From Vermamoeba vermiformis (taxonomy: Eukaryota), in contig JBEWZL010000077.1 of NCBI GenBank assembly GCA_045837725.1, positions 1-64,000 on the forward strand: a stretch of 64,000 bases of DNA, written 5' to 3'. Below the pieces are notes generated by a model that saw nothing but the letters and a program-made list of their open reading frames with translations, ran no database searches and was not told the origin of the DNA. Positions 1 to 37,867 of the stretch are shown here, piece after piece (the first letter of the stretch is position 1; each line of letters begins with the position of its first letter). The translations under genes and the position numbers were made by a program.

Positions 1-2274
1 TTCAAGTTGACGCATCCGCTTTTGGAATCGGTGCCGTACTCTCACAATGTGATGAGAAAGGCAAAGACCACCCTGTTGCGTATTGGTCGCGCAAATTAAC
101 GGATAGTGAAGCTAAATCGTCGGCGACTGAACGGGAATGCCTCGCAGCTGTCGAAGCTATAAAACATTTTAGATCTTATTTATACGGTCAACCTTTTATA
201 ATAGAGACAGATCATAAATCTCTCGAATTTATGGACTCATTCAGAGCGATGAATGGCAAGGTTGCTCGTTGGAAAATGGCTCTCGCGGATTATAACTTCA
301 CAGTTCGCGCTAAACCTGGTCGTAAAAACGGTAATGCAGATTCTCTATCTAGACTTCCAAATTTCACAATTAATTCGATGACAATCGAATCTACTCTCGA
401 ATTTAATTTTGCGTCAAATCCAGATAAATTCAGACAAGAACAATTAAACGATCCTAAATTAAAATTGTATATAGATTACTTTGAACGCGATTGCGTACCA
501 CACGGATCGGGAATTGAATTTTTACGCAAATGCTCAGATCTATATATGCAAAACGGACTCTTATAAATTAAAATATCAAGATCATAACCCTTCACACGCG
601 AAATTATGTCTCGCTATTCCAGAGAAATTTACAAAATTAATTCTCGACGCGTGTCACGCTGATCCACTCTCAGCGCATCAAGGAATTCAACGTACTTACA
701 ATATTATTAGTACACGTTATTGGTGGCCTAAAATGTCCGCTGACGTGAAGGAATATTGTCGCTCGTGTGTTAAATGCATTGCACGAAAGACTCCTCGCGT
801 TTATAAAGCGGGTTATTTAAAACCAATTAAGGTCTCAAAACCGTGGGAATTAATCGGCATGGATATTCTTGGTCCGTTGCCGTTAACTAAACGTGGTTAT
901 AGATATATTATCGTATTTTGTGATTATTTAACGCGATTTCCAATCTGTGTCCCGTTAAAGGACATCAGTGCGAAATCAGTAGCTAAAGCGTATATAGATT
1001 ACGTTGTTATTGAGCATAATCCACCACTTAGAGTTCTTTCGGATCGCGGATCGAGTTTTAGAAACAAATTTCGCGAAGAGATCTTACAATATTTTAAAAC
1101 AAAACCGTCGTTTACAACAACTTATCATCCACAAACAGACGGACTTGTTGAACGATTTAATCATACACTCGCGACGCTTTTATCAGTATACGTTCACGAT
1201 AATCAAGGCGAGTGGGATATTTATTTAAAATACGTTCAAAACGCGTATCGCAAAGCAAAACACCCAACTATTGGTTATAGTCCTTTCTTTGCTTTATACG
1301 GGTATGATTCTGATCAAATTATAGACCGAATTTTTCCTGACGCGCCAGATTTAAACGAAAATTTAAACAATAACGAAGTATTAGACGAAATTATTAAAGG
1401 TAGAGATATTGCTCGTAAATATATTACCGAAAATATCGTTGCGACTCAAAATAGAATGAAAGAATACTATAATGAATATCGTCGCGACTCACAATTTAAA
1501 ATTGGCGACCGTGTTTGGTTTTATTGGCCGCCGCGAAGCGCGCCAGGTCAAATTCCTAAATTCTCTTTACCCTGGTCAGGTCCTTATACCGTTGTCGCGC
1601 GAAGATCTCCGCTCACATACGTAATTGCAAATCCAGATGGAGAAATTCTCGACCATTATATTAACGTTGATCGTTTGAAATTATGCACGTCAGTTACACC
1701 ACCTACCGAATTTATTTCCGTTCACAAAAATGACAATTTTGATTATACTAAAGTGTCATTTAACGCGAAGCAAATTGAAGACAAAACACCCGTTGATGAC
1801 ACTGAAATAGTAGATGATTTTACTGATAATATTAATACAAATAATACCAATACTAACATTAGCGATAATAATAATAATCAATCAAATATCGCTGCGAATC
1901 CAACTGTCAGTACGACAGATCAAACAGAGCCATACGTAGAGCCAGAATGGAAGACACCTAAATACGGTATGATTATATTCAATGCGTTAAAACGTTTGTA
2001 TTTAGCAAACCGCGATAATCCTTCCTCCCCTCTCGCGCCTATCAAGAAAGAATTAAAACAGACTCTCTCCGGCGATAACATTACGAGCAACAAGCGAATC
2101 AAACGCTTCAAAGAACAAATTAATGCAATTAAATCACATCAAGAGTTGCTCGAATTCTTACGCACTTGCCTTACCAACTTCGCCGAGATCTTCGAACAAG
2201 AAATTTCACGTGAAAAGAAGCGCAGTCATGAAGGCAAAGAGAAGCGCAATTCGAAGAGAAGAAGACTATTTTAG
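1..2274 (+). CDS. pol: Retrotransposon Pol polyprotein (partial), interrupted by a +1 frameshift at ~561-566
   Basis: Frame 3 runs from the window start to TAA at 564-566 (…NGLL*). Homology continues in frame 1 (YKLKYQ…) to TAG at 2274. Confidence 0.9.
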
Positions 2275-2301
2275 AACGCTTGCCGAGGCCGTCAAGAGTC
2301 T

Positions 2302-2313
2302 GAAAGGGAGGAA
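2302..2313 (+). promoter_or_regulatory. Polypurine tract
   Basis: GAAAGGGAGGAA lies immediately 5' of the TG that starts the LTR. Confidence 0.85.
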
Positions 2314-2399
2314 TGTGATGAGACAAATATCTCGTGTATATCTCGTGTACTTTATATAAATAAACGACCGTTCACACTACCACAGAACGGGTCATAACA
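2314..2399 (+). repeat. Putative 3' LTR, 86 bp
   Basis: Starts TGTGATGA right after the PPT and ends TCATAACA (7/8 inverted match, TG…CA). Contains TATATAAATAAA and a tandem ATATCTCGTGT x2 (2327-2348). The 5' LTR is not in the window for confirmation. Confidence 0.7.
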
Positions 2400-2807
2400 G
2401 TTATAGTAACTAGGTCGAGGATCAAATCCGAGACGCCATACACGTTTATGTCCACGTTGTTAGATACTTACAGTGAATGCAATTTAATCACTGCTAAATT
2501 TCACGTACATTTTCGAATATTTAAGTTGACAACGTTTTTACTCGACGTGACGCTTTCCGAAAACACGTGCTGGAAAGCTGTAGTACCAATTTCGCAAAAT
2601 ATCTACTTCCGAATGATTGCTACTGTTACTTATTCACAAACTTTGTTGACGGCAAAAGATCGGAGGTCGCTCCGTAGCAAGGAGCGGGACCAATCAGTGA
2701 ATTCAATTTTCCTTCCGCTCCGTGATACTTAATCGCAAACCTCCGTTTTGGATTTTAGTGCATAATTTATTAATTATTACCTTAAGCTACCACACAGAGC
2801 TCTAAGC

Positions 2808-4028
2808 ATGAAAAAGAAGACTAACACTAGCGACGCTGTCACCAAGAAATCAGATGCTGGATCTACTAGCACTTGGCTGAAAATACAAGGTATATTATTA
2901 TATTGATTATATTTACCAATAATTGAAGATCATTATCTTACCAGTATAATCGGTAGTTGTTGATCTGCAGTTTTTTAATTAATTATGTGAGTTAACAAAT
3001 TAAAATTTAACGAATTCTTTAAACCTGATTGCGATCCTTAATATGTGATTATATACAGCACTTAGTGGCGCATTTTTTGGATTATTCGTTGTGGTGCATC
3101 TGCTAAACCACGCAGTTGCTCACAAGGGAGTCGAAGCTTACACCAACGTGCAACACAAATTAAGGTAAAATAATTATAGAATATTCTTAATAGCGATTAA
3201 TCGTATTTCAGAACCGTTTACCAAAGTCCGATCGTCGAAGCTTTGATCTTCGCCAGCCTTGGAGTTCATATGTTGTCCAATACTATTCTTATCACTCGCC
3301 GTTGGAAGCGCGAGGCTGATCCTAAGGCTGTTCGCTCTTTGACGTTAAGCCAAAAGTTGCAACGCTGGTCTGGGTAAGAAACAATTCGGTATTTTTGCTT
3401 CACAAAGCTTTTTTTAAATTAATAGCATACGCAAGTCTTGGTTACTAATAGTGTTATTATTTTGTAGATACTTTTTGGCTACTGTTATCTTTGGTCATAT
3501 TTTCGCGACCAGATTCCAACAAACTCTTTTTAATCCTGAGTTGGACGGTGATTTTGCTCTTGCCACGTAAGCTTTATATCACTAACCATAACTATATTAT
3601 ACAAATATCCTAACTATAGTTCATAGCTACACTCTTGTGTACAACGGTGCCTTCTTCTTCCCGTACTACTTTTTGCTCGGTTCGTTGGGCTTGTTCCACT
3701 TGTCCTTTGGTTTCTTGAAGGCCTCTGATCTATTTTTGGGCACTAGAATGCACAGAAAGGTCACTGAAAGCGCAGCATTTTATTTCTTGATGACTCTTGG
3801 TAAGTACCGGATTCAAATCCAACAGAAAAGCCAAAATTTTTTTAAAACGAACAGCTATTTCGTAACGAAAATTATATTAATAGTATATTTATAGGCTCTG
3901 CAGGCGTCATGTCAATCTTATTGGCTTTTGCTGGTTATTACTTTGACGTTCAATCGCCTCGCGTTGACCTCTGGGTCCGTCATTACGACTATTTGTATAG
4001 CCTCGTTGGAATTAAGGCTAGCCACTAA
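2808..4028 (+). CDS. Multi-pass membrane protein, Mcp1/DUF1691-like (cytochrome-b-like His pattern), 6 exons
   Basis: Spliced ORF MKKKTNTS…WLKIQALSGAFFGLFVVVHLLNH…KLQRWSGYFLATVIFGHIFATR…PYYFLLGSLGLFHLSFG…KASH*. His residues fall in the hydrophobic helices. Confidence 0.65.
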
Positions 4029-4186
4029 GAAACAGACGAATGTTAGACCTTTTAACTGATATTCAATTCATTAACAACGGAAAAAGGGTGTTCTTTTTTT
4101 TGGACCGAACTAAATATTTATTTTAATTGCTTTTGTGCTTTCATACACAACAATAGATATTCATATATAGTTTGCATATTGTTACT

Positions 4187-5373
4187 ATGGTTACGAGGAA
4201 GCAAATACTTGGCGGATCTTTATTTTTGATCTTGATCTGCATGTTCTTTGTATTTCCAACAAATACAGCTAAATCGGGTCTTATAGCCTTCATAGAGTGG
4301 GCGAAGTCTACAGGTTTGTAACCGATATTTAATTATTCTCAAACGAATTTAATATTTACTATGTTCTGATCTACGTTGTAACAGACCAGATCTGATTTAT
4401 ATTATCGCGATAAATTATTAAATATTTATTATTATATAGGACCAATAGGATTAGCATTATTAGTTGTTTTTCACGTGATCGCAATTGTCATCTGCTTCCC
4501 TGGCACAATTCTGTTCGAGTTAGCAGAGGGCTTAATATTCGGAGTTATTTATGGGTACGTTATATAACGATAATTTACGCGAAAAATTGCTAATATTTTT
4601 CTAACAGCGGATCTATGGCGTTGCTTGCAAAAACTCTTGGAGCTTCATTATCTTATTTATTAGGACGTTCATTATTACATGAATGGATGAAAAAGAAGAT
4701 ATTATCGAATCATAAATATCGAGAGGTAAGATACTTCATTCGCCACGTCAGCAGATGTTGATCCGAAAAATTAACTCGACATTGGTAGGTATTTAACGCT
4801 ATTAAAGCTGATGGATGGAAGTTAGCCATATTATTAAGACTATCTCCTATTCCTTCATGGGTAAGCAAGTTAAAATAAGTCGGATCTGTTTGTTCTAACG
4901 ATGTTTTGTTTAGGCAAACAATTACGGTCTTGCCTTAAGTCCTATTCCATTTGTTACTGTTGTGTGGACCACGTTGGTTGGGTCTATTCCGACTATTATT
5001 CAGAACGTCAACGTTGGTAGTTTCTTACAAAGGTACATCCAGATCCACTTTTATTCCTTATTTAGAAAATACTAACAACTCTTTGTAGCCTTACCGATGA
5101 CAGTACTGTCGAATCAAATGTTGTTTTTAAACGCGTTATGATGGTCTTCAGTATTGTCTGCAGCGCTATTGTTATGAAACTTTTGTACAAATATTTCAGC
5201 ATTGCCAAAAATACTCCGAGTAACGGATCTAGAATCGGTAAGTGCTATATTTATTCAAATTAGTAGTATTATTACAGGTAGGTAGTTGGTTCTAATTTAT
5301 TTGTCAATCAGAAAATGTATTTAATGGACTGTTACACGAAGATCCGGAAGAATTACATAGTCATATTCCTTAA
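4187..5373 (+). CDS. TVP38: TVP38/TMEM64 (VTT/DedA, SNARE-associated Golgi protein); possible alternative last exon ending at 5630
   Basis: Spliced motifs FPGTILFELAEGLIFG, KTLGASLSYLLGR, LLRLSPIP, NYGLALS, TLVGSIP. Confidence 0.85.
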
Positions 5374-5853
5374 AAACGTTTATGATTATTTATTATATTA
5401 TGGATAATTACCCATACGAACAATGGCAATACTAATGTAAATACTTTATACTAAGTCAAATTTCAGTTGACTGGATCTACTGCAAGCATCTAACTTGACG
5501 TTTATTTTTAATAGAAGGCCTAAGCGAGAAGCATAAGGAAGTAGTGATTCCGAAAAGAGAACGAGAGGTAGCTCCTAGAGGACATAGAGCGACTGTTAAT
5601 GGACGTCATAGATCGCAGAATAATAACTGAAAACAGATCAGATCCCGTTCGCCAAAAGATGCACATCTGTTTAGAGCAAAACGAGTACTGTAGTCTTTAC
5701 GATTCTTTTGTTTACCTAATAAATACGCGTTTGCCAAGCGCGTTCAAAAAGATTAAATTGGATTTAAATCGACAAGGCACGTGATTTTTTTCCCGGAATT
5801 TCTGCAGGAAGTATCCGTTAGAAAATCATCGCTTTAAACTTTTCGAAAATGCG

Positions 5854-8171
5854 ATGGATACCACACTTGAAGTCGTGCAAGGCATTGATGATGCCGAACA
5901 AGTCATTGTGCATTTCGATCTCGATTGTTTTTTCGTTCAAGTCGAGAGAAAACGATTCCCCAGATTAATAGGCAAACCAATGGTTGTGCACCAACATAAA
6001 GATATTATTTCGGCGAGTTATGAAGGTAAATAATGCCTCCGAGCAATTTGAGAATTTTAATTAATTTTTGTAATTAATTATTTTTACAATTTTGTTTTCA
6101 ATATAAGTAATCGCCTTTATGCCTCCATAACGAAAACAAACTCGCATTATTTAATTTATTATTATTTCAGCTCGTGCTTTGGGAGTGAAGAAACACATGA
6201 CGATCGAAGAAGCCAAAGCGATCGCTCCAACTCTTGAAGTTGTTTCTATTTACAAAGAATACGGATCTAAAGTATCTTATAAGCCATATCAAGAATGCTC
6301 CGAGCAAGTAAGACAAATGAGATAACATTCAAGACCTGACAAATTTGCGTGCGCATCCGATCAGGATCTAATCCCTTTCATTTAGGTTGAAAAAGTTATT
6401 ATACGCCATGGAGCACCTGTGGTAGAAAGAGGCAGTATTGACGAGTTCTATTTCGATATTACAGAGTTAGTCTCTAAACGGATGGATCCACATCTAACTA
6501 ACAACTCGAGCGGCACTTTCAGCACGCCGAATGACTCAATGCTGACCGCTCAGTCAACGAAAAGTCAAATGAGTTCTCAGAATGAGAATGCGAGTACGTG
6601 GCACGGCGTTGTTTATGGCGGTGGTAAGTGTTGTTCGAAGATCTTGAAAACGGATCTAGACTAGAGAATCGTTGTTTTGTAGTCTCATATGACATGCAAT
6701 ATATGGCGTTATATATTAGGACTATAAGTTTCCGTTTGGTGTGGGCTTGAACAGCCGATCTCGGATCCAGATTTGGATTCGGTGGATCTGACAGATTTTA
6801 TTGTAGTGCCTAAAATAGCGTATCATTGCGATGAACGCATGCGCGTAGCATCAGCCATCGTTCATGAAATACGAGCGGCGATCATGAAAGAAGTGCAAAT
6901 CACGTGCTCGGCTGGCATTGCCAAGAACAAATTGTTGGCGCGAATTGCCTCAAATTTGAACAAACCTAATCAGCAGACTATTATATTACGACGAGGTGTT
7001 GAAAGTAAGTCCAGATCCGTCGGTTAAGACTTGCCTGTTATGGAAATAATATTAATTTTTTAACTTTCTTTGCACAGCGTTATTGTCGCATTTGCCCATT
7101 GAAAAATTGCCTAAAATAGGAAATAAAATTGGCAGAGACAAAATTGAAGAAATTAGACGGTTGGAATTAGTGAACTGTATTGACTTGCAGGTACGTCATC
7201 ATCGAATTTTTCTAACGCCGTTCATTAATATTATTTCCTTATTTAGAAATATTCGCTTAAAGAAATGAAAACACTGTTCACTGAAACAGGTGGTCGGTGG
7301 CTCTATGACGCCTGTCGCGGTGATGATTTCGAAGAAGTTTTTAAGAAAGGTCCGCAGACTATTTCCAAATATGGTAAAAATAATATTAATTATTTATTAT
7401 TATTAGGACCTGCTAAAAAAATAATGCGAAGTATGACATTAACACCGATATCAAATAATGGCGTGGAATTGCGACAAGATTTTTCGTACTTGGCTAAAGA
7501 ACTGTGCGATTGTTTAGCTAAAGACGTAAGTGGTATTTAAATAGGTATTTTGAATCGATGCTTAATTACTATATTTAGAAAAAAGAAAATAATCGCAAAC
7601 CTAAAACATTTTATTTGCATTATCGATGCGTGAATGAAAAAGAAAAATGTGTGTCAGCTCCGATAACCAAAATAATACAACATCCATCATGTACGTACCA
7701 TAATTAATATATTACTATACTTAAATATTGATATTATTATCAGCGAAGGGATTCAATCCGGATCAAGGCCAATACAGTTTTGAAGCGTTTTTGCAGACCA
7801 CGATGAAACTGTTTCATGAATCAATGGGCGATAGAAGGTAACATAATATGACCTTAAATAATATTATTGTATTAATATGAGTGAATAGTTGGACGATGAG
7901 GTGGATCGGGATCGCGGTTGGAAATTTCGCGGAGGATCCAAAACCAGTGTCACCGAAAGCGACAATAATGGGCTATTTTAATAAGCTGCCAAGTCCGCCG
8001 AAGACCACGAACAACAATAATACACAAACGAGTAGTAACAGCACTCCTGCAAATATTATTAGCGATGGTCAACCTAGAACGAGCGATCCGTCTAATTCAC
8101 TGAAAAGAAAGTCCGATGGATTGCAAGAGGAACGCAAGGACGAATCGACGAAAAAACAAAAACTTTTTTGA
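5854..8171 (+). CDS. Y-family translesion DNA polymerase (Pol eta/iota-like), multi-exon
   Basis: HFDLDCFFVQVE, SASYEARAFGVK, ERGSIDEFYFD, CSAGIAKNKLLARIAS..NKPNQQT; PIP-like TIMGYF and basic NLS-like C-terminus. Confidence 0.92.
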
Positions 8172-8282
8172 TTTGGCAGCATAAACAAAGTTCTATCTAG
8201 ATAATCAATCCGACCAATTTAAAATTTTGGTTCATTTTATTTTGCTCGTGAAAATTCGAATTTTCGACAATTTTGTCAATTT

Positions 8283-30657: not shown

Positions 30658-33643
30658 ATGTTTGGCGTAGCGTTAAGAGCGGATTTGGCGCGACGGTTGA
30701 CCGTTCGTGTCCACTCGAGAAAGCTTCACGTCGTTAATAAGAAGAGTAAAAATATGGTAAATTATAGATTAATCAAATATAATCATATTATTAGGTCTTG
30801 TGGCAATGAACGACTAATTTATTAATAAAATATCAGGTTGAAAAAATCGTGGCACGATATCTTGTGGACAAAAACGGGAATAAGGCCGAGAGCGTAAGTA
30901 CAATATTATAAAAATAACAAAAATGCTTAATTAATTATTTTAGGACGTTTCTGCTGGTGATTTTGTTGCCATCCAGCCAAAACACGTCATGACACACGAT
31001 AATACCGCAGCCGTTATCAAAGAAATTCACCTCACTAGGATCAAATGTAAGTGGCACACTATTAATACGATATTTTGGAGTGTTAGCTCGAAGCCCCAAC
31101 TAAGATCCGTCATTTCCATAAAAGGCAAAAATCAAAAACCCTCGCCAACCAGTATTTGCCCTAGATCACAATGTGCAAGACAAAGGCGTCGAAAATTTAG
31201 CACAATATAAGAAAATTCAACAATTCGCTAGCGAGGTAAGTGCATTTTAAATTGTTTATTTGTGAGATCCGATCCAGTATTCAATTCAAATTCTTATTTA
31301 GCATGGAATCGATTTCTATCCAGCTGGACGAGGCATTGGTCATCAAATTATGTGCGAAGAAGGTTACGCTTATCCCGGCAGTTTGGTTGTTGGCGCTGAT
31401 AGTCACTCGAACATGTACGGTGGATTGGGCTGTCTTGGTACTCCTGTAAGTCCATATGATGACATCGTTATATGACCATATTTTAATACATTGCTATGCC
31501 AGGTGGTCCGAACGGATGCTGCTGCAATTTGGGCTACTGGTCGCACCTGGTGGCGTGTGCCTCCTGTCGCAAAGGGTGGGTCAACATCGATTTTTTCGCA
31601 TCGAAAATTTTCTTTCTGACCGAATGAATTGCAGTCGAGTTGCGCGGAAGATTATTGCCTGGAGTGACAGGAAAGGATGTTATTATCACATTGTGCGGCT
31701 TATTTAACAAAGACGAAGTTTTGAACCACGCGATCGAGTTCACGGGTGAAGGTGTGGACACATTGAGCGTGGACGAACGATTGACCATTGCCAACATGAC
31801 CACTGAATGGGGTGCGTTGGCTGGTTTGTTCCCTATCACTAGCACTACTCTCAATTGGTTGCGAGCTCGTCGTGTAAGTATCAAATCCGGACGGTCAGGT
31901 CCACTTGACATTTTGACACTTTTAATTAATAAGCATACTGTTTGCTGCGAAAGTATAATAATGACGATTTGTACGTAGGATCTGCTTGCTAAACGTCTGC
32001 CGAAGATTCATCCTCGACACAACGATGTCGTGTTCAATCGATTGTTGGACGATTTGGAGTACTTCAAGGCTGATAGTGACGCATTTTACGCCAAAGAACT
32101 CGTATTAGACTTGGTACGGTAACAGTTACCTTAAGCGTTTGCACGAAACTGATTTGACACGTGTCATTCATAGAGCTCTGTCAGACCACACGTGTCAGGT
32201 CCTAACGACGTCAAAGTTATGCAAAGTGTTGAAGATGTTGAGAAAAAGAACGTTAAAATTCACAAGGCGTACATTGTGTCTTGCGTCAACAGTCGTGTTC
32301 AAGACTTGGCTGCTGCCGCCAAAGTTGTCAAAGGTAGTTAGCAGTCTATACATAGACATTAGGTGTCGGCTTAAAGTCATTGATATGTTATTACTTTGTA
32401 TGAATGTTTAGTAACTTTGTGTAACAGGCAAGAAAATCGCTCCCGGCGTCGAATTTTACATCGCTGCCGCTTCAAGCGAAGGTATTTATTAGCTTTTCCC
32501 TTAACAATAAGTATATTAATATCGCACTATAGTCGAGGCTGAGAGCTCTGAGCGAGGTGACTGGCAAGCGTTGTTGGATGCCGGTGCGAAACCTTTGCCT
32601 GCTGGATGTGGACCTTGCATCGGTTTAGGAACTGGTTTATTGAAGTATGTTGCATATATTCTCGATAATTAATCGTGATGTTAACGATTTATAGGGACGG
32701 AGAAGTTGGTATTTCAGCTACAAACAGAAACTTTAAGGGTCGTATGGGTAGTCGAGATGCCAAGGCTTTCTTAGCCAGTCCTGAAGTCGTAGCAGCATCT
32801 GCTTTGAAGGGTTCTATTGCTGCACCAGATTATCATCGCGCATTCTATTCAACTAAAGTCGGAGGTAATTTCAGCTCAGATGCGCATCCGTTACAAAAGT
32901 CTTACTGTTGTTGCAGAGGCTAGCCATAGCATCCAAGTTAATGCACCTCCTAAGAGCGCAGAGACTAAGAAGCAAGATATCGTTCAAGGATTCCCTAAAC
33001 AGATCTCTGGCGAGATTTTGTTCTGCCACCAAGACAACCTGAATACTGACGGAATTTACGCTGGAAAATGGACTTATGTGAATGATATGACGCCTGAAAA
33101 ACAAGCACAGGTTGTTATGGAGAACTACGACCCTAACTTTGTGAATATGGCCAAGAAAGGAGACATTTTAGTCGGCGGTTACAATTTTGGTACTGGAAGC
33201 TCTCGTGAACAAGCTGCGACCTCACTTAAATACAAAGGTACAAATTATTATTGTTTTTGTGAAATACAATGTTAATTTCTTTTGAAAGGCATTGCTCTGG
33301 TGTTTGCCGGATCTTTCAGCGAAACTTACGCACGTAACGCGTTCAACAACGGGTACATTTGTATTGAGGTGCCTGAACTCGTTGAAGATTTGAAGAAAAA
33401 GTACGTAGAATCTTGGTTATAAAATCTTGTGACTTGAATTAGATTCTAACTTTCGTTTTTCTTAGGTACGGATCTCAAGCCCCTACTGTTAAGACAGGAT
33501 TAACCGCAAATGTTGATTTTGAGCGTGCAGTACTTACAGTTGACGGCAAGAGCTACGCAATGCCTGCATTAGGTGAGGCTATTCAAGAGTTAGTCGTTGT
33601 GGGTGGTCTAGAACCTTGGATCACGCAACAAATCAACCAATAA
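30658..33643 (+). CDS. LYS4: Homoaconitase (homoaconitate hydratase), mitochondrial, multi-exon; one +1 indel at ~31019-31021
   Basis: [100 protein letters not shown]. Confidence 0.93.
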
Positions 33644-33743
33644 AAAGAAAAGACGTTAAACACGAACATTTACAAAACAATAGGCCTACATTAACTAATT
33701 ACAAGCGACTAAATTTACATTGGAACATCCACCGACTTGGATC

Positions 33744-36700
33744 CTAGTTCCTTTGACTTTGATGGTGAGCCAAGGCATTGGAAATCTGAGTCAGGAAATT
33801 TTGATCCTATGCGCATATCATTAGATTATATTTAAACTTAAACAGCAGCGCAGGACTTACTCGAGTGCTGTTGGCCGGGATCGAGGCCGCAGTGTACACA
33901 AAGAAGAATCGTGTAATAACGCAGTCCTCATCGGGGTGCACGACAATATCACCGTCTTGTTTGCACGTGGGAATGTACTCGCACAAAGCAATGCAGTACA
34001 CGTTGGAATTGGTCAAGAACTTGTTGTTCGACTTGCCTTGGGGCGGATTGTTCGGGGCCATGTGCCGTAGCGAATAGCCGGACGATACAGAAGACTGTTT
34101 GATAAGGGAGTTGGTGAGTATCAAAGGGAAAGTGGCAAAAAGGCAAAAAAAATATGGCCATTCCAGGGATCGAACCTGGGACCCTCGCGTTATTAGCACG
34201 ATGCTCTAACCAACTGAGCTAAACGGCCGTTGTTGATCCGTCGCTTAGCAAAAACAGGGCCTGGTTCGGTTGGAAGACTAATACAACAAAGTATTGTTGA
34301 AAGGCCGAAGAAAGTTTTCGATTGCGGGTTTACAAGCTCTCGTGAAACCGACTGCAACCTGCACTCTAGCAGAAGCTTTGCCTCAGGCAAAGGATTAAAA
34401 AGCAAAAATTATCTCAGAGAGGGAAAAAGAGGGAAGTCTAGTCTATTGATTGAGAAATAATGTGTGGAGGAGCAAAAAAGAAAAGAGCACAACACCTCCG
34501 ATTCCCAGGTAGTCTCCTACCCCAGTACTAAGAAGGCCTGAACAAGCTTAACTTCGCTGATCGGACGGGAAGCGGTGCATTCTTGTTAGTGTGGTCGTGC
34601 CCGAGACGTTTTTCAACATCGTGTTCGGGTCACTACTTCCCAACTTCCACCCTGCACTTCGCACTCGGCCACGTGATCAAATTTGGCTCAAAAACAATTT
34701 TGGATACGATTCTCACCCAATAACATTCAATTTGCGTAATAATTTTCAGAGCAACAAAAAGCAACCTCGGACACAGTAAAAATTATCAGTTGGAACACCT
34801 TGCGACAGGCCAAGAGCAAAAAAAGATTGGTTCAACCCGGAATCGAACCGGGGACCTACTGCGTGTAAAGCAGATGTGATAACCGACTACACCATTGAAC
34901 CAGTGCGGTGCCGAGGAAAGCGAGCCAATTGCACGACCTCACAAAAAGGAAATAAAGCGTGTACGCGACTTACGTTAGCAGCCATATAGATGCCAGAGCC
35001 ATAGGCAGCACCGTTCAGTTGAAGTTTAGTGCCAGAAGCGTTTTTCAAGCTACAACGGGAGTTACTATGGTGACGACAACAAACTAGTAGTACTCAGTGG
35101 ACTTACCCAACACGCAGAATTGAGTGCCAGTTCTCGATTGGAGAGCCGTGGAAAGCAAATTTAGAACCGTGTTTCTGTAACAAGTCGTTAGTTGCGACCA
35201 ACTAAACAAATCTCAACGCTGTCAGGTACCTTTTTCAAATCCTGGAACTTGGCTTCTTTCTCAGGAGGAGCGCTCGCCTGGCGGGTATCGTTAGCTTCAC
35301 TATTGATCAATTTGAAAGTCATCTTACCAATAAATATTGGTGCGGAGTGTTCATTGATTTAATGTGGAATTTCTCTGGGAGCTTAATGATGTGAGATCTG
35401 TTACTAGAGATGATCCATTGTAACAAGGGGAATCCTAATCGATGTGCGCGATCGATTTGTTCCTTCAACGAGCCAAAGTCTTTAGCTTTAGTCATTTCTT
35501 CGACGGACGGCATCTTGTTCAAAATTTCTTGCACGAGTGCCAAGTCCTTGCGTTCCTCAGATAAAATTGGACGATCAGGGCGATCGGGGTCGAAAACTGT
35601 GACAAATATTAGTATCGGAGGGCGTTGCGAATCGGTTCATGTAACGTACTTGTCGGGAATGGACTGAAGATGACGTTGTTTCTGTTCGATTTGACGGCGT
35701 TGATGGTCATTGAGACTAACAAATCAACCACTTCGGAGTCAGTGGCAATGTCCTCAGCAGCCTCACTACCGACTTTAAGTTGTTGGAAGCTCCAGCAGCA
35801 CAAATCTCTCGTGCAAACAGCGGGCTTAAGCATGTTGGATCCGAACAAATGATTTTCATCGCAAATAACGCAATACTCATTCAACTTTGGAATACGAGAT
35901 CTACGAATGAAGGTTAGGTTTCGCAGCTGATATGAGATCGCGTTTGAGGTCATACCGAAGATAAACCATTAACATGACAAAGAAGCCCATGTCTCTGTTT
36001 ACAACACCTTTTTCGACTTTGCCGAGCTATTGTCACGTTAGTGTTAGTGTCATGAAAGTCACGTGCTTGGTACTTACGTTTTTGGGGTCATTCCAGAACT
36101 TGTGAGTTTTGCGTGCGTCTTCATCATCTTCATCCACAGAGTCGACCTCGCGCGAAGCACTTTTTGAAACAGAACCACCGTCGTAGAACGGATCTGCACT
36201 CAGAATATCAAGTGCGGCGTCAAAGTTATTTTTGGTGGCGCGCACTGCATTGAACGCAGCTTCTTCGGCAAAGCCCATTTGTACCAACGAAATAACAATG
36301 TCCATCGAGACCTCTTCTTTCTTATTCTTCTTGTCTTTGCGAGTATTATTTGATGTCACGGGCTTTGCGTTGCTGTTATTATTTGCCGGCTTAAGATTCG
36401 CACTCGTTCTCTGAAAACCATTGGCCAATTCTTTCTTAACAAAGCTATTCATAATATCTAATTATAATTGGGTTAGTATTCGCATTTAAGTATGAAATGG
36501 TAACGGCGTACTATCAAGTTGGTATTTGATTCCAAACTTGTGGCGAGTAAAGTCATCCAATTGCCATACTTCAATTTGTGGAATAAAATTAGGTTCCAAA
36601 TAATGCTTATCGTTAATATGAAGCCTAAAGAAATGACGTTAGATCTGCATCCGTTTTAACTAACTCTTCGAAATCCATACTTAACGACGATAGGTAACCA

Positions 36701-37867
36701 CGCATCGATCTTCCAACCCTCACAAGCGCTCACTGAAAGAATTTCTTGCGGATCAAGTTTCAATTCAACGTCTACAACTTCGAGCAACGGCATGTAACTG
36801 CATCGAAAAAAATAGCCGTTAGTTTATTCAGAGAATTTTGTGGTTGCATAATTTAAATTAAGGCGATGGTACTGAAAAGGCTATATAGAAGGTTTGATAC
36901 GTACTGGTACTTAATATTATTTTCGCCAAACGTAACAGCGAAATGTCTAAAGTCGTCCATGAGTTCTTTATTCTGTTTAAAACTTTAAAATAGAATATGT
37001 CAGTAAGATAATATTACGTAGAGTTAGCAACGTATTTAAAATCGTACGCGTTTAAGTCCTCTTCCTCCATTGCATCGTGGTCGTGGTCGCTGGCAGCAGA
37101 TCCGATAGAATTTGAAGATACGCCAAGAACTACGCTCAAATTAGCACATATTCAGCGTAATAAATATAAATCAACCATTGAGATTTGAAAATAATGACGG
37201 AATTTCAGCAAGTTGGTTTAGCGAAATAGATCCGAATAAGCTAGTACCTTTCTTGGGAGTAGTTTCTTTTGGCTTCGCCTTTCCATCAGCCTTTATAACA
37301 CCCCATCGTACAAATGAATCTATAATATGATCATATGAGACACGTCACAAATGCGATAATAGGACACGCACCATTTATCGCTTCTTCAACGATTTTATCA
37401 AGCTTGTCTTCGCAATAAACGGGTTCATCAGAGGCCGGTGAACATACCATGCAATATTCTAATAAAATAGGATAATATTAATAAGATTTTTTGACGATGG
37501 GACACGATAAAAAATCCCTCAAGAATTTTTATTTGAAGACCTTTCATTGAATAATTGTAGAGAGATAAAATGGAAATACGAAGCTTACCTGGATATTCAG
37601 CGGTAATAACTGAATAGAAATCAGATTTGTCTTTGTAGACGACATTGAACTGGACGTGATCTTCTTCTGCGACCAGATCTAAATCACAAACGGAATAAGT
37701 TAAGATAAATTTATTTTAACTTGCTAATTATGTATTTTTGATTTGGCACTGAAGTATTAAAAGACTCGATAGAGCCGTATTTGGTTACCTTTTACTGGTG
37801 AATCTGCAGCTGCGTATTTCTTTTGCAGTTCTTCGACTAAAGATAATAAAGCCTTTCTTCTGCTCAT
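33744..37867 (-). CDS. PARP6/PARP8-like mono-ADP-ribosyltransferase with internal UBA domain, multi-exon
   Basis: LNEYCVICDENH…KPAVCTRDLCCWSF, PLLQWIISSNRSHI, FAFHGSPIENWHSILRVGLKNASGTKLQLNGAAYGSGIY, CIALCE, CVITRFFFVY. UBA-like SLVQMGFAEEAAFNAVRATKNNFDAALDIL. Confidence 0.92.
34155..34228 (-). tRNA. tRNA-Ile(AAT), inside PARP intron
   Basis: GGCCGTTTAGCTCAGTTGGTTAGAGCATCGTGCT-AAT-AACGCGAGGGTCCCAGGTTCGATCCCTGGAATGGCCA folds as a cloverleaf, has A/B boxes and an oligo-T terminator just downstream. Confidence 0.97.
34484..34602 (-). rRNA. 5S rRNA (119 nt), inside PARP intron
   Basis: GGGCACGACCACAC…CCCGTCCGATCAGCGAAGTTAAGC…TTAGTACTGGGGTAGGAGACTACCTGGGAATC…GTGTTGTGCTCT. Terminal 9-bp helix I, followed by T-runs. 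Confidence 0.95.
34828..34901 (-). tRNA. tRNA-Val(TAC), inside PARP intron
   Basis: GGTTCAATGGTGTAGTCGGTTATCACATCTGCTT-TAC-ACGCAGTAGGTCCCCGGTTCGATTCCGGGTTGAACCA folds as a cloverleaf with a T7 terminator. Confidence 0.97.

Follow-up and report, generated by a model that had tools for sequence, protein, structure and literature searches.

Nested transfer RNA (tRNA) genes are common in nematodes, and 204 host genes are reported for C. elegans in the available part of one survey (PMC3342880). Work on Caenorhabditis (Wang & Ruvinsky 2012, PMC3342880; Sagi et al. 2016, PMC4999229) describes, in the sections available, complete tRNA genes with promoters of their own that lie in spliceosomal introns. 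A like arrangement is found in the stretch of Vermamoeba vermiformis DNA considered here, positions 1 to 64,000 of contig JBEWZL010000077.1 (hereafter the window, 64 kb), in which a tRNA-Val gene, a 5S ribosomal RNA (rRNA) gene and a tRNA-Ile gene lie together in intron 15 of a PARP6/8-like gene. We consider it probable that these are three independent RNA polymerase III (Pol III) genes that became nested in sense in this intron long ago and have been tolerated there. A second likeness is that tRNA-host pairings are conserved across Caenorhabditis species according to the same sections, as the tRNA-Val pairing is between the window and a relative known from a metagenome contig (L002). The window differs in that its host gene has very short introns (median 55 nucleotides, nt) and in that the cluster is mixed and includes a 5S gene. 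Dependence of nested genes on the host promoter is, in the accessible text of PMC4999229, a feature of the nematode system, whereas the cluster in the window is known from its sequence.

Linkage of 5S genes to tRNA genes has likewise been described. All 11 5S genes of Leishmania major are associated with tRNA genes in the available portion of the relevant report (PMC2695483), and the window resembles them in that a dispersed 5S gene is physically linked to tRNA genes at no more than a few hundred bases, each of them a separate Pol III gene. The same portion places the Leishmania clusters between polycistronic protein-gene units, whereas the window cluster sits in a spliceosomal intron, and the lineage is unrelated. 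In the fungus Yarrowia, 48 of 108 dispersed 5S copies stand on the 3' side of a co-oriented tRNA gene (PMC2566860, 2008, as excerpted), a disposition shared with the window. The excerpt describes Yarrowia 5S genes that adjoin the tRNA directly and are co-transcribed with it, whereas in the window a run of seven T stands 3 nt after tRNA-Val and is followed by a 225-nt spacer with runs of five T, which excludes a dicistronic tRNA-5S fusion of the Yarrowia type. Independent 5S copies outside the ribosomal DNA (rDNA) unit are reported from the mucoralean fungus Lichtheimia in the accessible part of PMC4133162. The window 5S gene is similar, standing without an rRNA gene or a second 5S gene in 64 kb; the intronic location and the tRNA linkage belong to the window and are not described for Lichtheimia in that part of the paper.

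The original prediction regarded a complete mixed cluster in a protein-coding intron as unusual. That judgement does not hold for nested tRNA genes or for tRNA-5S clusters, both of which are known from the sources above as far as these were available. It stands for a nuclear 5S gene in a spliceosomal intron, for which no report was found among the literature matches listed (the top 10-20 of 110-8,225 per search); the same is true of intronic Pol III clusters in fungi, and in both cases this is weak evidence of absence. The locus is thus a combination of known kinds of arrangement, nested tRNA genes and mixed tRNA-5S clusters, with no special mechanism shown.

The whole window was searched for tRNA genes with ARAGORN and for RNA families with Rfam at gathering thresholds (38 for RF00001, 29 for RF00005). 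ARAGORN found two minus-strand tRNA genes, Ile(aat) at 34155-34228 and Val(tac) at 34827-34902. Rfam gave three matches, likewise all on the minus strand and all within 34155-34901 (Table 1). Relaxing the Rfam threshold to E<=0.1 added no match in the window, and at this threshold neither another 5S copy nor an 18S, 5.8S or 28S gene was detected there. As judged within 64 kb, the 5S gene lies outside a tandem array and outside an rDNA unit. The three genes together span 747 nt and are the sole RNA-family matches in the window. The full-length matches confirm the intact cluster that had been predicted, as they do its order along the minus strand (Val, 5S, Ile) and the co-orientation of all three genes with the host; the chance of all three sharing the host orientation is 1 in 8, which alone is not significant. 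The oligo-T said to follow each gene is also present, as T7, T4-C-T6 and T8 respectively. Spacers of 225 nt (Val to 5S) and 255 nt (5S to Ile) separate the genes, and both contain additional T5 runs.

Both tRNA genes look like eukaryotic nuclear tRNA genes of Pol III type 2, with model scores above threshold and a T-run just downstream, and the 5S gene likewise has the appearance of a eukaryotic 5S rRNA gene of Pol III type 1, with a full-length model fit and a T-run at its 3' end. Candidate A and B boxes can be read in the tRNA sequences (GGTTCGATTCC / GGTTCGATCCC and TAGCTCAGTTGG / TGGTGTAGTCGG), an assignment made by eye against the box consensus. The region of the 5S gene around positions 50-97 resembles the Rfam consensus and is a candidate internal control region for TFIIIA. 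The three genes would thus carry internal promoters, the A and B boxes in the tRNAs and the internal control region in the 5S gene. Each would end at its own T-run and, because each has its own terminator, Pol III would not be expected to read through to the next gene.

The sense orientation inside an intron is also what would be needed for a different route, raised by the original prediction alongside interference with Pol II transcription of the host, in which the RNAs are cut from the RNA polymerase II (Pol II) intron in the manner of intronic snoRNAs and are not made by Pol III. There is a precedent in Arabidopsis, where the tRNA-like RNA of GUT15 is processed from a Pol II intron (PMC6152437, in the part available). 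The T-runs after the genes, together with the T5 runs of the spacers, argue for independent Pol III units over such processing. With a terminator directly after each of three genes that have canonical full-length tRNA and 5S sequences, with tRNA-Val and its T-run conserved in the relative, and with nothing at the locus that requires this route, co-processing appears extremely improbable.

Table 1. Positions of the Pol III genes, their terminators, the host gene and the conserved upstream element in the window
Feature	Position	Strand	Evidence and remarks
tRNA-Val(UAC) gene	34828-34901	minus	RF00005, 66.3 bits, model 1-71 of 71; 72 nt downstream of 5' splice site
tRNA-Val terminator, T7	34818-34824	minus	sequence and terminator scan; ATC between gene and T7
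5S rRNA gene, full length	34484-34602	minus	RF00001, 104.7 bits, E 6.6e-22, model 1-120 of 120, untruncated
5S terminator, T4-C-T6	34474-34484	minus	sequence
tRNA-Ile(AAU) gene	34155-34228	minus	RF00005, 65.4 bits, model 1-71 of 71; ends 60 nt before 3' splice site
tRNA-Ile terminator, T8	34145-34152	minus	sequence; TA between gene and T8
Host gene, PARP6/8-like	33744..37867	minus	17 exons, 16 introns, 725 amino acids; UBA, ARTD15_N-like and PARP catalytic domains
Exon 15, ends ...GIYMAAN	34974..35049	minus	tblastn and exon model; RNA joint 35049->35107 (intron 14)
Intron 15, GTAAGT...AACAG	34095..34973	minus	879 nt; holds the Pol III cluster
Exon 16, begins SSVSSGYS...	33861..34094	minus	tblastn and exon model; followed by 54-nt intron
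Exon 17, last, 63 nt	33744-33806	minus	tblastn and exon model
Conserved 21-nt element, candidate Pol III upstream (TFIIIB-region) element	34931..34951	minus	17 of 21 identical to L002; 30-50 nt upstream of tRNA-Val

The host gene was delimited by comparison with a single protein. With the exon after intron 15 as the query, P0001 (727 amino acids) was the only one of 63 candidates to match at E<=0.001; its source name is 'poly [ADP-ribose] polymerase 6/8' and its precomputed Pfam domains are PF18084, PF22562 and PF00644 (ARTD15_N, UBA_7 and PARP). An exon model was built by tblastn of P0001 on the window (minus strand, 37867 to ~33747) followed by refinement of the splice sites. The refined model is a clean open reading frame (ORF) of 725 amino acids that is 82.6% identical to P0001 over the full length. 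When single exons were compared with Pfam, UBA was found at 5.9e-08, while PARP (0.0055) and ARTD15_N (0.024) were weak and stayed under the gathering score, owing to the shortness of the exons.

Read on the minus strand, intron 15 has canonical splice signals (GTAAGT at 34973-34968, AG at 34096-34095). The junction reads ...GCT AAC | GTAAGTCG ... AAACAG | TCT TCT GTA..., that is GIYMAAN | SSVSSGYS, and P0001 runs uninterrupted across it (GIYMAANSSTSSGYS). The 879-bp GT-AG intron that had been proposed between these two peptide segments of a PARP gene is therefore borne out by its splice signals and by the continuity of P0001, and also by RNA joints (below). One point calls for correction, in that the exon after it is the penultimate one: the gene goes on through another intron, of 54 nt, to a final exon of 63 nt. 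The 16 introns measure, from first to last, 110, 130, 52, 118, 65, 107, 56, 54, 51, 55, 53, 50, 55, 57, 879 and 54 nt. Intron 15 is 6.8 times as long as the next longest, and the 15 remaining introns range from 50 to 130 nt with a median of 55. Once the cluster (747 of the 879 nt) is subtracted, 72 + 60 nt of flank are left, approximately an ordinary intron size in this gene.

Evidence on splicing comes from three public RNA sequencing (RNA-seq) runs (X21-X23), which were aligned together with a DNA run (X1) to positions 33600-35700. The RNA runs bear the same species label as DNA run X1, yet they derive from a lineage ~5-10% diverged at synonymous sites; most RNA reads are 90-95% alike to the window and every read differs at many third-codon positions. 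In the three runs 42, 49 and 60 reads, 151 in all, end their alignment exactly at 34974, the last position before the intron, and their unaligned tails agree with one another at 0.98-1.0. The consensus of the tails, reverse-complemented by hand, reads SSVSSGYSLR and is exon 16 with synonymous differences only. The junction reads that had been suggested as a check are thus present, albeit in a diverged lineage, and they demonstrate that exons 15 and 16 are spliced together in a close relative. An RNA joint 34041->34974 was found from 7, 10 and 9 start places in X21, X22 and X23 respectively, and introns 14 (35050-35106), 13 (35175-35229) and 11 also appear as RNA joints at their predicted borders.

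RNA depth is zero on the spacers (34310-34451 and 34665-34806), which is uninformative because the RNA strain is too diverged for its intron reads to align at 90% likeness. The RNA depth of exon 16 is lower than that of exon 15, a difference that is confounded by sequence divergence. Neither the zero depth of the spacers nor the low depth of exon 16 was accepted as evidence of intron retention or of attenuation, as diverged intron reads fail the 90% likeness.

Two further features of the RNA runs concern the 5S gene and the species label. A few RNA reads (2 in X21; 2 + 2 in X22) join the 3' end of 5S to 19-25 plus-strand T (34483-34486 and 34566-34578). On the RNA strand such T runs are poly-A, and the reads look like polyadenylated 5S, which is a product of nuclear RNA surveillance. 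Exon variants of the RNA runs (33880-35700) occur at many synonymous sites in 100% of the reads and at none of these sites in the DNA run, and it seems that the species label of the RNA and DNA runs covers clearly diverged lineages.

Whether the intron has an orthologue in relatives had also been put forward as a check, and a scan of metagenome contigs with P0001 returned three loci, L001-L003. L001 and L003, both from a second metagenome, share 99.6-99.7% identity with L002, and the three loci are therefore one organism seen twice. A scan of a collection of prokaryote contigs for the splice site, a gap and the beginning of tRNA-Val gave 0 matches, which is what such a collection would be expected to give. 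L002 codes for the orthologue up to residue 631, and in blastn its exons are colinear with 11 of the 17 exons in the window, with short gaps at the corresponding places and 73-85% nucleotide identity. The orthologous intron is at the same codon and opens after GIYMASS with GTAAGTCG. It holds a tRNA-Val(tac) gene in host sense (ARAGORN; Rfam 63.5 bits), again with a T-run after the gene, that lies 75 nt from the 5' splice site, against 72 nt for its window counterpart. The sequence of this gene departs from that of the window gene at 2 of 74 positions, which by eye on the alignment fall in the D loop and in the T-stem (C-G to U-G). The intron is therefore present in the relative, with the tRNA-Val gene conserved in place.

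It is also clear from comparison with the other introns that this conservation is confined to particular parts of the sequence. All 12 of the other orthologous intron pairs that served as a control were unconserved, with local scores of 5-12, the most extreme of which was reached by 10 of 200 shuffles. The 5' flank of tRNA-Val, with its first 8 bases removed, gave a Smith-Waterman score of 18 against a shuffle mean of 8.2 (standard deviation 1.5), and none of 200 shuffles reached it. The stretch after tRNA-Val is unconserved (score 8, reached by 163 of 200 shuffles). Neutral intron sequence is thus no longer alignable between the window and L002, while tRNA-Val and its upstream region have been kept in place. 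New at this locus is the conservation of the nesting along with an upstream element, and the case shows that a tRNA gene can stay nested across species in which the remaining intron sequence has ceased to be alignable. The upstream promoter (TFIIIB) region of a tRNA gene would be expected at the position of the conserved flank. No second copy of the element at 34931-34951 was found in the window at up to 3 mismatches. There is also 81% complementarity (17 of 21, with 8 consecutive pairs) between the element and 5S bases 3-23 (34580-34600, same strand), which could reflect chance, the remains of a 5S gene or a site of pairing.

Under the reading of three independent, tolerated Pol III genes, at least tRNA-Val and its upstream flank would already have been in the intron in the common ancestor of the window organism and L002. 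An ordinary short intron, now represented by the 72 + 60 nt of flank, would have acquired the 747 nt of Pol III genes. Pol II would transcribe through the whole cluster, and the spliceosome would remove it with the intron. The arrangement would persist since it is harmless and since tRNA and 5S promoters travel with their genes. What has been observed is the integrity of the genes, their terminators, the borders of the intron, splicing of the junction in a relative and a tRNA-Val gene kept in place; transcription of the window copies by Pol III and the lack of an effect on the host gene are inferred.

A number of observations weigh against this reading. The splicing was seen in the RNA of a diverged relative and not in that of the window strain itself. 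RNA depth is ~1-13 on both tRNA genes, and there are no RNA-read differences on the 5S gene among the rows listed; because the genes are multi-copy in X1, and with the RNA runs diverged, such reads are unassignable to the window copies, whose Pol III transcription is presumed. The L002 contig stops 91 nt past tRNA-Val, whereas the window 5S gene starts 225 nt past it, and conservation is visible for tRNA-Val only. Selection for a functional link between cluster and host would be another way to account for the conserved nesting and upstream flank.

Such a link would mean that selection keeps the cluster and that Pol II transcription of the host and the Pol III genes influence each other. The host promoter might open the chromatin and gate the nested genes, as with sup-7 of C. 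elegans, or bound TFIIIC/TFIIIB might act as a roadblock or insulator that tunes the output of PARP6/8. The position of tRNA-Val, at 72 and 75 nt from the 5' splice site in introns that are otherwise unalignable, the conserved 5' flank and the shared orientation of all three genes and host are in keeping with this. There is a precedent in Caenorhabditis, where orthologous host genes have kept their intronic tRNAs and these rely on the promoter of the host, according to the available sections of PMC4999229. A caveat that must be applied is that a single relative is involved, in which one of the three genes is visible. Retention may moreover be passive, and Wang and Ruvinsky argue, in the part of their paper available, that conserved nesting need not mean selection (PMC3342880). 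The conserved flank coincides with the expected place of the ordinary upstream promoter region of a tRNA gene, and the lower RNA depth of exon 16 than of exon 15 is, as said, confounded by divergence. On this evidence functional coupling is unlikely. It is equally doubtful that the Val-5S-Ile set is an anciently fixed module under selection, with cross-talk between the polymerases and the 21-nt element as part of the control, and/or that it reflects 5S genes settling beside tRNA genes. Spread of 5S by settling beside tRNA genes would, if true, account for the close tRNA-5S-tRNA linkage.

The position of the 5S gene within the cluster is the next point against three independent genes nested together. 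Contigs from X1 that are nearly identical to the window bridge both splice sites of intron 15: one spans the 3' splice site (33957-34172) with 0 differences, and another (34865-35150, 3 differences) bridges the 5' splice site and 37 nt of tRNA-Val. The X1 contigs break inside the repeated genes, and the placement of 5S between the spacers comes from the window assembly alone. A partial misassembly would leave the two tRNA genes truly in the intron, with 5S and the spacers joined in through collapsed repeats. The X1 contigs are compatible with this: from exon 16 they reach no further than the edge of tRNA-Ile, from exon 15 no further than tRNA-Val, and none among the pieces listed bridges 5S to either spacer with at least 31 letters on each side. 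Contigs break at repeats by construction, however, and X1 does contain three spacer pieces that fit the window (34250-34396, 34611-34704 and 34709-34847), at a roughly single-copy depth of 256-320 and with no other home indicated for them. Misassembly is accordingly judged highly improbable.

The DNA run also bears on how far the genes of the cluster are repeated elsewhere. The summed contig depth of the tRNA and 5S genes in X1 ranges from 6,407 to 265,518 compared with ~375 for the exons, but summed contig depth (~700 times the exon depth for 5S) is not copy number and is read here only as multi-copy with many flanks. The 5S gene is highly multi-copy in X1, with many different flanks. In twelve X1 contigs the likeness to the window stops at 34638, 36 nt ahead of the start of 5S, and 26 share a variant 11 nt upstream of 5S, G for the T of the window at 34613. 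The shared upstream flank of ~36 nt (34603-34638) points to an upstream element conserved among 5S copies or to a dispersed unit ~165 nt long. In a gene-dense genome with dozens or hundreds of dispersed 5S genes, some copies would be expected to fall in introns, which would lower the surprise at finding one. A 5S copy with an internal deletion of 48 nt (34507-34556) is present on an X1 contig of depth 187.6, and therefore truncated 5S pseudogenes exist somewhere in the X1 sample.

The last point against the preferred reading is that X1 has the spacer at 34709-34847 in two versions that are alike in depth: the first matches the window exactly, and the second has 5 changes and, at 34743, a 7-base gap. 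In line with this, the depth bins over 34665-34806 reach 607-1035 compared with ~290-450 in the exons. The two versions may represent a second Val-5S unit elsewhere, a second allele or a second strain. It is mainly because of them that a small probability is kept on a mobile or duplicating Pol III cassette, in which a tRNA-5S(-tRNA) unit spreads through the genome and intron 15 is one landing site. Such a cassette is also favoured by the multi-copy 5S with varied flanks, and tRNA-5S units of Yarrowia have been amplified up to 29-fold (PMC2566860, in the excerpt available).

The original prediction had raised a mobile cassette as one of its two explanations, and this is disfavoured because there is no target-site duplication or terminal repeat and because the site is occupied in a relative. 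Neither a target-site duplication, nor a terminal inverted or direct repeat, nor a poly-A tail flanks the cluster, and the ends thus lack the marks of a mobile element with Pol III genes such as a SINE or a 5S-bearing TRIM of the Cassandra kind; a repeat search of 33900-35200 gave only scattered similarities of 10-41 nt, none of which brackets the cluster, the longest being between the two tRNA 3' ends with their terminators. tRNA-Val is at the same site in the diverged relative (L002 / L001), neither the spacers nor the upstream element recur in the window, and the summed depth in X1 is, as noted, no measure of copy number. A cassette is thus very unlikely.

If the three Pol III genes are merely tolerated in intron 15, a compact genome with short introns can carry a 747-nt Pol III block within a Pol II gene over long evolutionary time. 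Gene callers should expect nested Pol III genes, and a long outlier intron is a hint of them. If the cluster is more than tolerated, it would offer a natural system for the study of interference between Pol II and Pol III, and of gating by a host promoter, outside the nematodes, and the conserved upstream element would provide a handle for such studies.

Downstream of the host gene lies an aconitase-family gene on the plus strand (32669-33643; Pfam Aconitase 1.4e-10, Aconitase_C 3e-12), which converges on it. The last aconitase ORF ends at 33643, ~100 nt from the stop of the host gene at 33744.

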